From contig JAFRAK010000039.1 in assembly GCA_017405445.1 (NCBI GenBank), positions 2,773 through 66,772 on the forward strand: a DNA stretch of 64,000 nucleotides, written 5' to 3'. The DNA is from Bacilli bacterium. GTDB taxonomy: Bacteria; Bacillota_I; Bacilli_A; RF39; UBA660. The position numbers were made by a program, and so were the translations under genes. Below, piece after piece: positions 43,196 through 43,730 of the stretch. Within the stretch, counting starts at the first letter, position 1; every line of letters begins with the position of its first letter. The notes beneath the pieces were generated by a model. It searched no databases. It was not told the DNA's origin and saw only the letters and a program-made list of their open reading frames with translations.

Positions 43196-43730
43196 AGAGT
43201 TTATATAATGATTCGTCAAATTGTACGGCGTATGCTTAACGTACTTTGATGTGGAAACTCATAGTTAGAATTGGGGTTGTTCTAACATATAATAATTAGG
43301 GTTGAGGTAATCAAGCTTATCAAAAAGAAACCATTAGATGTCCCCAAAATCATCTATTTATCTTTTAATAATATAATCCTCTCATGATAAGTACCTGGTA
43401 TAGAGTCATTCTCTATAAACGTCCTTAGAATTAAGATAACATCAGTCTATGGAGTGGTTTTACAAAAAGTCGGATAGATATAGTCTAAAACGAAATAATG
43501 TAAAATGCGATAGATAATATGAGGTGTCTGAAATGGTCAAATATCTTATATAGAGTAAAATCTATAAATTATCTATTTCGATCGAGATAATTCATAAACT
43601 CGAAAAGCATATAAAGAAATATGCGGGTCTCCTTCATATCAAAACGAAAACAAGTATTGACCATACTTAGATAGATAACTCTATCAAAATCTCTGTTTTA
43701 GAAGGTTTTTAAGAGATTTAGAATTTATAT
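43196..43730 (+). ncRNA. large hairpin-rich structured ncRNA candidate (class unknown; ROOL/GOLLD-like context)
   Basis: About 530 nt with no ORF of 60 aa or more, locally less AT-rich. Many perfect hairpins: GTACG/CGTAC 43222; GTTAGAA/TTCTAAC 43264; TATAGAG/CTCTATA 43399; TTATCT/AGATAA and TTTCGA/TCGAAA about 43568-43603; GCATAT/ATATGC 43607; AAATCTCT/AGAGATTT 43687. Loop TTGGGG (43271) is complementary to loop CCCCAA (43342). Abuts tRNA-like genes. Confidence 0.45.

Follow-up and report, generated by a model that had tools for sequence, protein, structure and literature searches.

Comparative sequence analysis points to a new family of structured RNA beside phage tRNA genes

Introduction

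What is encoded by a stretch of phage DNA that is free of ORFs, dense in hairpins and runs directly into tRNA-like genes? The question arises at the start of an ORF-free island of 2.2 kb (43171-45345) in a 64-kb stretch of DNA, hereafter the window, which is a segment of an AT-rich phage genome (~28% GC) whose long ORFs all lie on the + strand. Of the ORFs that reach 30 aa or more, just two (36 and 31 aa) touch the flagged region. A first, sequence-only reading had described 43196-43730 as ORF-free and hairpin-rich, a description that is borne out here for 43171-43730, and had proposed a large ornate non-coding RNA, perhaps belonging to the GOLLD, ROOL, HEARO or raiA classes. GOLLD and ROOL are found in phages and prophages of Firmicutes, often beside tRNA genes, with which they may be co-transcribed (PMC5737381).

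Results

The locus and its hairpins

Upstream of the flagged stretch lie a MazG-like gene (42532-42831) and the gene of a 92-aa membrane protein (42892-43170), as well as a flotillin-like gene; downstream of the island come the large terminase gene (from 45346) and a portal gene of the T4 gp20 type. The first tRNA gene after the stretch (43731-43817, + strand) has an oversized anticodon loop of 20 nt, scores 50 bits with the Rfam tRNA model and is reported by ARAGORN as tRNA-???. Further tRNA-like genes and a tmRNA (44813-45175) follow within the same island, and a terminator-like hairpin (45260-45279) closes the non-coding unit. The identical island, within the same 132-kb genome, was assembled from at least three samples; samples with this phage include those of SRR12529053, SRR12529072 and ERZ28653717. 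The tRNA-like genes with abnormal anticodon arms are numerous in this island.

We first asked what the single sequence can tell. On re-reading, each of the hairpins and motifs listed previously was found where it had been placed, including those of the spacer beyond the first tRNA gene: GGGGTTGTT recurs at 43871-43879 within the hairpin GAATATAA...TTATATTC, the hairpin GGACTATA-GCAA-TATAGTCC occupies 43936-43955, and AAATCCATCAT is present twice, at 43886 and 43913. Perfect stems of at least 6 bp are enriched in the flagged stretch, with 10 against 3.98 ± 2.01 in 300 dinucleotide shuffles, only one of which reaches 10; stems of 5 bp show no excess over chance (16 versus 14.5 in dinucleotide shuffles). 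The folding energy z-score is −2.8 for the + strand and −3.1 for the − strand. As this score is modest and not strand-specific, the single sequence is insufficient to prove an RNA and, taken without comparison, is suggestive rather than conclusive.

Known RNA families

We then searched for known families by running cmscan with the 4227 models of Rfam 15, at the gathering score and also at E ≤ 10 on 42800-46500 and 43100-44850. Only tRNA and tmRNA were found in the window. Within 43196-43730 itself, neither cmscan nor ARAGORN reports any member of the tRNA/tmRNA clan (CL00001), the tRNA matches starting at 43731. At E ≤ 10 the window holds nothing like GOLLD (RF01998), ROOL (RF03087), HEARO, i.e. 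the IscB omega RNA (RF02033), the raiA motif (RF03072), T-box, pRNA or any ribozyme, and the same threshold returned no GOLLD, ROOL, HEARO or raiA in six homologous loci, compact forms included. Permissive matches are noise, as exemplified by FasX, which lies on the wrong strand and reaches 28 bits where its gathering score is 100. The gene context does not fit HEARO either, which would call for an adjacent IscB/HNH-RuvC ORF: the neighbours in the window are the MazG-like gene, the membrane protein gene and the terminase gene, and the small DUF968 protein encoded beside the RNA in one homologous locus (L040; loci are cited by such handles below) is not IscB. Inspection by eye together with Rfam revealed no likeness to T-box, RNase P, SRP, 6S or pRNA. 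The RNA family described below is thus new in that it matches none of the Rfam 15 families, and the proposed membership in GOLLD, ROOL, HEARO or raiA is refuted at Infernal's sensitivity.

A core shared by three phage backbones

Homologs were recovered by searches with flanking proteins and with DNA patterns taken from conserved blocks; copies lie on contigs from IMG/VR and from JGI metagenomes, in GTDB MAGs (Clostridia, Clostridium sp.) and in assemblies from ENA/Logan. Among the raw pattern matches, about half were false positives in coding sequence, which the covariance model discarded. A core of ~185 nt (43422-43603 in the window) recurs in 15 distinct sequences carried by three unrelated phage backbones. 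These sequences amount to only about six lineages, so that the family is rare in the collections searched, and their number is a lower bound since the searches relied on exact patterns. Group A comprises phages of ~130 kb (the window, L054, L056, L060, L025/L038, L002/L037/L020 and L003). In group B/E (L009, L040, L044), the phages are small and the element is flanked by a DUF968 gene and a DUF1376 replication gene. For group C/D (L035/L030/L042, L047-L049 and L039), the element follows an SNF2-type helicase gene and precedes tRNA(CAU), HTH regulators and primase. The three backbones have no neighbouring protein family in common, and our comparison of neighbours found none near the RNA that is common to three or more lineages; every copy is co-oriented with its neighbouring genes. 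No copy was found in cultured phages (BLAST queries: the island and the copies from L009 and L035) or in plasmids (BLAST with the window copy); apart from the 3' end of the tmRNA, matched in Lactococcus 949-like phages, these searches gave only chance 30-mers.

That the window belongs to this family was verified with a covariance model, R1, built from L009, L040, L039 and L044 only and thus containing no group-A sequence. R1 finds 43418-43643 of the window with 35.2 bits (E = 8e-8), its sole match in 64 kb, and, over 318 kb from unrelated loci, chance pattern matches included, gives nothing below E = 1. The window copy is the most divergent member. CAUAA is missing from its Pc loop, and unrelated hairpins take the place of the 3' pseudoknot (see below).

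The "large ornate" label does not fit the family, whose conserved core is only ~185 nt and whose shortest members are ~150 nt. The GOLLD, ROOL, HEARO and raiA classes are roughly 400-800 nt long. The ~540 nt of the window copy result from a 5' domain found in close relatives, from insertions in Pc and Pd and from a 3' extension that is not shared.

Compensatory changes in the core

The core consists of four side-by-side hairpins and reads, from 5' to 3', Pb, GUGG, Pc, YGYG, Pd, UKCRR, Pe. Its first helix, Pb (TCCTTAGA, 43422-43429, with TCTATGGA, 43446-43453), is nearly invariant in sequence and, together with the invariant GTGG linker that follows it (GUGG in the RNA; 43454-43457), better conserved than any other part of the family. 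The helix YCCWUAGA/UYUAUGGR with GUGG is present at 43422-43457 of the window and in 15 of 15 sequences. Pb occurs in two forms, UCCUUAGA/UCUAUGGA and CCCAUAGA/UYUAUGGG, its outer pair alternating between U-A and C-G and its fourth pair between U.U and A-U.

The order Pc-Pd-Pe, the joints YGYG and UKCRR and the Pe loop with its G-C closure are all found at 43458-43603 of the window, where the three helices are fully paired; they covary across the family. In Pc (TTTTACA/TGTAAAA, 43458-43505), six of seven pairs covary, with up to four pair types per position, no mismatch and no unpaired cell. Its loop is of 10 nt in most members (RAAAWMCAUAA). In L047-L049 it is 109 nt longer, and expanded loops are also found in the window, L054, L056 and L060. 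The window loop carries an insertion of 34 nt that ends in GAAAUAAU, without CAUAA and hence without the RAAAWMCAUAA loop; as the expanded loops of L054, L056, L060 and L047-L049 indicate, this loop is not a universal feature of the family. After the linker TGCG comes Pd (ATAGATAAT, 43510-43518, with ATTATCTAT, 43568-43576) and then the linker TTCGA, the whole spanning 43506-43581. The closing AUA/UAU pairs of Pd are invariant; covariation is seen at pairs 4 to 6, where as many as five pair types occur, all five being found at pair 4. Counting closing stems and interior, Pd measures 23 to 170 nt among members and 67 nt in the window, of which 49 nt are interior. Pe (TCGAG/CTCGA, 43582-43603) closes the core with a 12-nt loop, ATAATTCATAAA; four of its five pairs covary, its closing G-C pair is invariant, and the loop AUAAWWCAUAAA is present in 15 of 15 sequences. 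Note that within group A an alternative 8-bp pairing, AATTATCT/AGATAATT (43567-43592 in the window), competes with Pd and Pe.

To quantify the pairing, the core helices of the 15 sequences were placed by conserved sequence anchors and not by pairing. In this anchor-based core, 381 of 390 cells hold a pair, and 14 of the 26 base pairs covary, changing on both sides while staying paired. A second alignment of 12 sequences, evaluated with a counting tool, has 96.9% of its cells paired and 18 of 30 pairs changed on both sides; its covariation score of 0.548, against 0.204 when shuffled (reached in 0 of 500) and at most 0.08 with slid partners, is to be read knowing that this alignment was fitted to the model's structure. 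The compensatory base changes establish the fold. The covariation proposed earlier as a check is therefore present in the homologs, despite the lack of an Rfam match, and supports the reading of the stretch as a structured ncRNA adjoining tRNA or tRNA-like genes in a phage. As for the strand, the core of the 15 sequences contains 10 G.U pairs and no A.C pair, which indicates that the RNA is read on the + strand and that selection acts on the + strand transcript.

Three other interpretations of core elements were considered and rejected. A mini-ORF starting at the conserved AUG of Pb (MEWLLEIHN* in L009, MGWL* in L002) was rejected because it has no Shine-Dalgarno sequence, varies in length and, in Pc, changes in a compensatory rather than synonymous manner. 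Pb resembles in sequence an 11-nt GAAA-tetraloop receptor (CCUAAG/UAUGG), but its two strands are equally long and no GAAA loop is conserved. Pairing of the GUGG linker with CCAC in Pd loops is possible in L035 and L044 and is absent from the window, L002 and L009.

The 5' domain and the 3' end

Upstream of the core, a 5' domain made of P0, P1 and Pa is added in group A and, in part, in group B. In the window copy, a hairpin GTACG...CGTAC (43223-43244, + strand) lies upstream of P0; it is identical in the closest relative, L054, and shows no covariation. P0 (43264-43286), already recognized in the first reading as GTTAGAA-TTGGGGTTG-TTCTAAC, has a loop UUGGGGUUG that is invariant in L054, L025/L038 and L003; its stem is wholly replaced in L003 (TGCAAG/CTTGCA) with pairing kept. 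It is followed by a linker, UUAGGGUU (43296-43314), conserved in L025, L002, L003, L054, L056 and L060, which can form a mini-hairpin TTGA/TCAA, or TTTG/CAAA in L025 and L002. The long-range helix P1 (GCTTATCA, 43315-43322, with TGATAAGT, 43385-43392) is predicted by RNAalifold and covaries: GCUUAUCA/UGAUAAGU in the window corresponds to GCUCAUU/AAUGAGU in L025 and L002 and, in more distant copies, to ACUUAA/UUAAGU (L009) and ACUUGG/CCAAGU (L040). P1 encloses a hairpin TAGATG/CATCTA with loop UCCCCAAAAU (43335-43356), also noted previously as TAGATG-TCCCCAAAAT-CATCTA, the position of which is conserved and the sequence of which is not. Pa (TATAGAG-TCATT-CTCTATA, 43399-43417) covaries as well, with stems CTGTAG/CTACAG in L002, CTGCAG/CTGCAG in L020, TATAAGG/CCTTATA in L003 and AGAGG/CCTCT in L009; L039 has no Pa, its consensus promoter putting the start at Pb.

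The sequence-only reading had further pointed to a loop-loop complementarity, TTGGGG in the P0 loop against CCCCAA in the loop of the hairpin enclosed by P1. The complementarity stands in the window; its conservation does not, since L054, L025 and L003 keep the UUGGGGUUG loop and all three lack the CCCCAA partner, which among family members is unique to the window. On the + strand of the whole 64 kb, CCCCAA occurs only at 43342 and 44556. Because it is this rare in the genome, the loop pairing is perhaps real; it may be a contact specific to the window and no property of the family.

Downstream of Pe, an H-type pseudoknot is present in most members, among them all of group A except the window: 3-5 nt (e.g. 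AUGGC or GGU) base-pair with the loop of the hairpin that follows. This pseudoknot is clear in L009, L040, L039, L002, L025, L054, L056, L060 and L003, and its stems covary (GGC/GCC versus GGU/ACC; AUAGUUGU/ACAACUAU versus AUAGCUGU/ACAGCUAU). The window has instead a specific 3' extension of ~125 nt (43604-43730) with hairpins at 43607-43624, 43652-43668, 43670-43685 and 43687-43719, the last of which ends 11 nt before the tRNA. Past 43607, BLAST shows no similarity to the relatives, and a possible pairing of GGTC (43626-43629) with GACC (43659-43662) is a candidate equivalent of the pseudoknot.

Promoter-like sequences and coupling to tRNA genes

The motif TAGCATAAT at 43168, described earlier as promoter-like, proved to be one copy of a recurrent motif, TARCATAATAW, found on the + strand only. 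The window holds 10 exact copies where 1.67 ± 1.16 are expected on both strands, and 0 of 100 shuffles reach this number; on the ORF map, nine of the 10 lie in intergenic spacers or just upstream of ORF starts. Similar motifs precede the RNA in L060, L025 and L056. The copy at 43168-43178, TAGCATAATAT, is likely the promoter element of the window RNA, with a transcription start that would fall at about 43185-43190. A sigma-70-type promoter of consensus sequence, TTGACA-17-TAATAT, lies directly upstream of the RNA in L039; it would have transcription begin on the first base of Pb, which defines a minimal RNA of ~150 nt. Near-consensus promoters are recognized by eye in L002 and L035.

At the other end, only 4-11 nt separate the last helix from the next tRNA or tRNA-like gene in L025, L054, L056, L060, L002, L003, L035 and the window. 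A tRNA-Thr gene begins 4 nt past the pseudoknot in L054, L056, L060 and L025, and a tRNA-like gene 5-9 nt past it in L002 and L003; in L039 the order is RNA, four tRNAs, skipping-rope RNA. By eye, a terminator-like hairpin separates the RNA/tRNA unit from the downstream genes in L002, L025, L003, L035 and L009. A ribosome-binding site and ATG lie ~20 nt downstream of the RNA in L040 and L044, an arrangement that would also fit a cis-acting leader.

Resemblance of the Pe loop to the tRNA(CAU) anticodon loop

The Pe loop and, in most members, the Pc loop contain UCAUAA(A)C, which is the 3' half of the anticodon loop of tRNA(CAU). In L035 and L003, moreover, the 5-bp Pe stem (CUAGG/CCUAG) is identical to that of the anticodon arm in the phage tRNA(CAU) beside it, and in L039 the two stems differ by one pair. 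Local alignment of the RNA with the neighbouring tRNA(CAU) is not significant, 59 of 500 shuffles scoring as well in L035. The likeness, with a further hint in the window's island, where tRNA-like genes with abnormal anticodon arms abound beside a tmRNA, raises the idea of an anti-defence or host-takeover decoy that traps an enzyme or defence nuclease reading the anticodon arm of tRNA-Met or tRNA-Ile2; we hold this for a long shot.

Discussion

As judged by the comparison of homologs, the stretch carries a conserved multi-helix RNA structure of the + strand, of a new family that is mobile between phage backbones; it adjoins promoter-like sequence and is usually fused to tRNA genes. We propose that 43185-43730 (+ strand) specifies a stable phage RNA of an undescribed family that heads an operon, receives its 3' end from RNase P and acts in trans, a reading to which we give about even chances. 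Transcription from a phage promoter would place the RNA at the head of a stable-RNA operon, which in the window would comprise the RNA, the tRNA-like genes and the tmRNA, followed by the terminator. By releasing the 5' end of the adjacent tRNA, RNase P would generate the 3' end of the RNA. The stable RNA would then act in trans, most likely by offering its invariant helix and loops for contact with a host RNA or protein. We infer action on host machinery because no phage protein is co-inherited with the RNA; its exchange among three backbones of gut-Firmicutes phages, with no linked protein gene, suggests an interaction with host machinery that is conserved.

The main rival is a cis-acting element of processive antitermination of the put/EAR kind, which would modify the polymerase for readthrough of terminators into downstream genes, since the layout promoter, RNA, terminator, genes is fitted as well by it as by a stable RNA. 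The element is indeed adjacent to putative promoters and has the direction of the downstream genes in every lineage; the hairpin at 45260-45279 precedes the terminase and portal genes, the five other loci listed above show the same layout, and the variable cargo, tRNAs or ORFs, would suit a general transcription device. However, no + strand terminator was found downstream in L040, and the nine further copies of the promoter-like motif, lying upstream of ORFs throughout the window, suggest that those genes have promoters of their own. In addition, a 3' end at 4-11 nt from a tRNA resembles that of a processed stable RNA, and no Rfam antiterminator family is matched. On balance we regard antitermination as unlikely.

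A riboswitch-like or other 5' leader, sensing a ligand or protein so as to regulate the tRNA operon or ORF behind it, would account for the multi-helix junction, the invariant joining nucleotides and the pseudoknot, which are typical of aptamers, for the position directly before a ribosome-binding site and ATG in L040 and L044, and for the alternative pairing of group A that competes with Pd and Pe. A conserved expression platform is nevertheless missing, as neither a terminator nor a helix sequestering the ribosome-binding site follows the core in L009, L040, L044 and L025; in L009, ~170 nt and a terminator stand before the next gene. The downstream genes are moreover mutually unrelated and mostly tRNAs. 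We therefore consider such a leader quite improbable.

Two further readings appear very improbable. The hairpins could form in DNA, in an element such as an origin of replication or a site for packaging or for single-strand initiation, for which speak the location in the replication/recombination module of small phages (DUF968-DUF1376, or helicase-primase), the distance of ~2 kb from the window copy to the terminase gene downstream and a folding z-score that is alike on both strands. Against it, the G.U pairs without A.C pairs denote selection on one strand (a structure of single-stranded + DNA being formally possible), putative promoters lie directly upstream, the coupling to tRNA genes is tight, and there are no iterons or AT-rich unwinding repeats. 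Equally doubtful is a self-cleaving or other ribozyme that would process a polycistronic RNA/tRNA transcript. Conserved junction nucleotides and a pseudoknot beside tRNA 5' ends would be in keeping with it, as would the islands shared with skipping-rope RNA, but no Rfam ribozyme family is matched, RNase P already accounts for tRNA 5' cleavage, and the comparable motifs FuFi-1 and skipping-rope showed no self-cleavage in tests (PMC5737381). Finally, a divergent member of GOLLD, ROOL, HEARO or raiA, to which the context shared with GOLLD and ROOL, phage DNA beside tRNA genes, might point (PMC5737381), has a negligible likelihood given the cmscan results on the window and the six homologous loci and a core well below the length of these classes.

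Returning to the stable RNA that we favour, phage RNA/tRNA islands hold conserved orphan RNAs such as GOLLD, ROOL and skipping-rope, to which this family adds another. Its core, of about 150-185 nt, is compact enough to be tractable and offers well-supported pairs together with a pseudoknot and loops that do not vary; the covariance model and secondary structure make its function directly testable and allow the family to be added to RNA family databases. Its practical importance is limited for now, the family being rare and known from uncultured phages only.

How does the new RNA compare with known systems? Like GOLLD (RF01998) and ROOL (RF03087), it is a structured orphan RNA of Firmicutes phages adjacent to tRNA genes. 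It differs from them in giving no Infernal match at any threshold and in its core, a linear four-hairpin array of ~185 nt with a pseudoknot; it shows no sign of multimerisation, and its sole candidate kissing-loop pair is not conserved. With skipping-rope (RF02924) and FuFi-1 (RF02986) it shares the character of small, highly conserved orphan RNAs of Firmicutes phages outside 5' UTRs, and also the vicinity, skipping-rope lying in the same RNA/tRNA island in L039 and FuFi-1 ~2.5 kb away in L009. These two RNAs end in their own terminator, whereas the new RNA usually ends at a tRNA, and they are unrelated to it in sequence and fold.

The T4 RNAs C and D (species 1 and 2) are small stable orphan RNAs of ~120-140 nt, co-transcribed with tRNAs and matured by the tRNA machinery. 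The setting in a phage tRNA cluster is the same, and the portal of the window phage is of the T4 type (gp20-like); unlike the new RNA, RNAs C and D are tRNA-like in size, and a sequence relationship is not expected. HK022 put and Bacillus EAR are structured RNAs of processive antitermination, promoter-proximal and placed before terminators and long operons, put being phage-borne. The new RNA resembles neither in sequence or structure, and it adjoins tRNA genes. The 6-nt complementary hairpin loops of the window copy recall the intermolecular loop-loop pairing of phi29 pRNA (RF00044), but there is no Rfam match, the complementarity is found in no relative, and these phages have a conventional large terminase. 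By kind, the RNA thus belongs with the orphan structured RNAs known from tRNA islands of phages, while its fold is itself new.

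The Pc loop of the new RNA is an insertion hot spot

Three variants of the structured phage RNA family, in the group C/D phage loci L047 (10372-10624), L048 (2715-2967) and L049 (5345-5597), carry a 109-nt insertion in the loop of the core hairpin Pc, and this insertion holds a hydrophobic 16-codon mini-ORF (MIYWFCNFCYSWTFSF*). Here, as in the window, the Pc loop is thus a hot spot for insertions. Within the core of the window copy, AATTATCT and AGATAATT form a perfect 8-bp alternative pairing (43567-43592) that is mutually exclusive with hairpins Pd and Pe, and weaker versions of it are found in two related group A phages, L054 and L025. 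This pairing could represent an alternative conformation or could be a side effect of two conserved motifs, AUCUAU and GAUAA.

Known orphan phage RNAs were also observed in the vicinity of the new RNA in other phage groups: a skipping-rope RNA (54 bits; L039 1594-1689) is the last element of the RNA/tRNA island of the group C/D locus L039, near the new RNA, and a FuFi-1 RNA (82 bits; L009 6242-6550) lies ~2.5 kb from it in the group B/E locus L009.

The island encodes abnormal tRNAs and further conserved elements

Directly 3′ of the new RNA, a tRNA (43731-43817; 50 bits) displays an abnormal anticodon loop of 20 nt with the palindrome CCTAGG inside, for which ARAGORN could not name an anticodon; the same position is occupied by a normal tRNA-Thr(UGU) in L025, L054, L056 and L060, all of group A. 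Three further tRNA-like genes with an encoded CCA (43961-44073, 44322-44387 and 44554-44682) are missed by standard tools or fall below their threshold. One has a ~45-nt insert and homologs in group A relatives (L002 9829-9904, L025 ~11783-11852 and L003 11447-11562), another is without a D-arm (26.6 bits), and the remaining one combines a 7-bp anticodon stem with an insert of ~50 nt. The spacer after the first tRNA holds AAATCCATCAT twice (43886-43896 and 43913-43923), similar in sequence to the T-arm plus acceptor 3′ half (GAATCCATCAG) of that tRNA, and a copy is kept in the corresponding spacer of L025 (~11708) and L054 (~4948). The repeats may be leftovers of tRNA 3′ halves.

A small conserved element, CAGGATAG...CTTAG-AAGGAAAA-CTGAG, is located after the tmRNA or the tRNAs and before the terminator (window 45187-45234; L025 12196-12242; L002 10000-10045; ~4800-4850 in L020, also of group A). 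It is 85-88% identical between phages, compared to ~65% in the flanks, its hairpin stem covaries (CTTAG/CTGAG versus CTTGG/CCAAG), and it matched no family in Rfam. Also within the island, 3′ of the second tRNA-like gene, a second conserved non-coding block (44028-44304; L025 11827-12111) retains 63% identity over ~290 nt and may correspond to an additional RNA.

Frame changes interrupt the large terminase gene

The large terminase gene downstream of the island (45346-47310; L003 12813-14778; L025 12449-13603) is split by frame changes. One +1 shift, common to the window, L003 and L025, lies at the invariant AGACGGAAAATC (~46150-46175 in the window), directly past ...AIRNRRKI and in the stretch that separates Walker B (LDEANF) from the VSST motif. 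Because the +1 frame opens only ~27 nt ahead of the 0-frame stop, this shift may be a programmed frameshift. Two more shifts, near 46040 and near 46815, are window-specific; the former is implied in two independent assemblies, L050 and L051, in which an identical 241-aa N-terminal product is called.

Comparison with known phage systems

The window phage encodes a tmRNA (44813-45175; 104.7 bits) with the tag ANYEAEKVAA, whose 3′ end is similar to the tmRNA of Lactococcus 949-like phages; at the equivalent place in L054 and L056, a tmRNA-like sequence was recognized by eye only, from its GGGGTAGTA... 5′ end. The motif TARCATAATAW occurs ten times in the window, always on the + strand, versus 1.7 expected (13198, 15312, 26283, 32701, 38904, 40173, 43168, 52451, 53220 and 56814), and all copies except one lie in an intergenic spacer or a short distance 5′ of the start of an ORF. 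The motif probably serves this phage as a promoter element of its own, similar to the T4 late promoter, which is -10-only.
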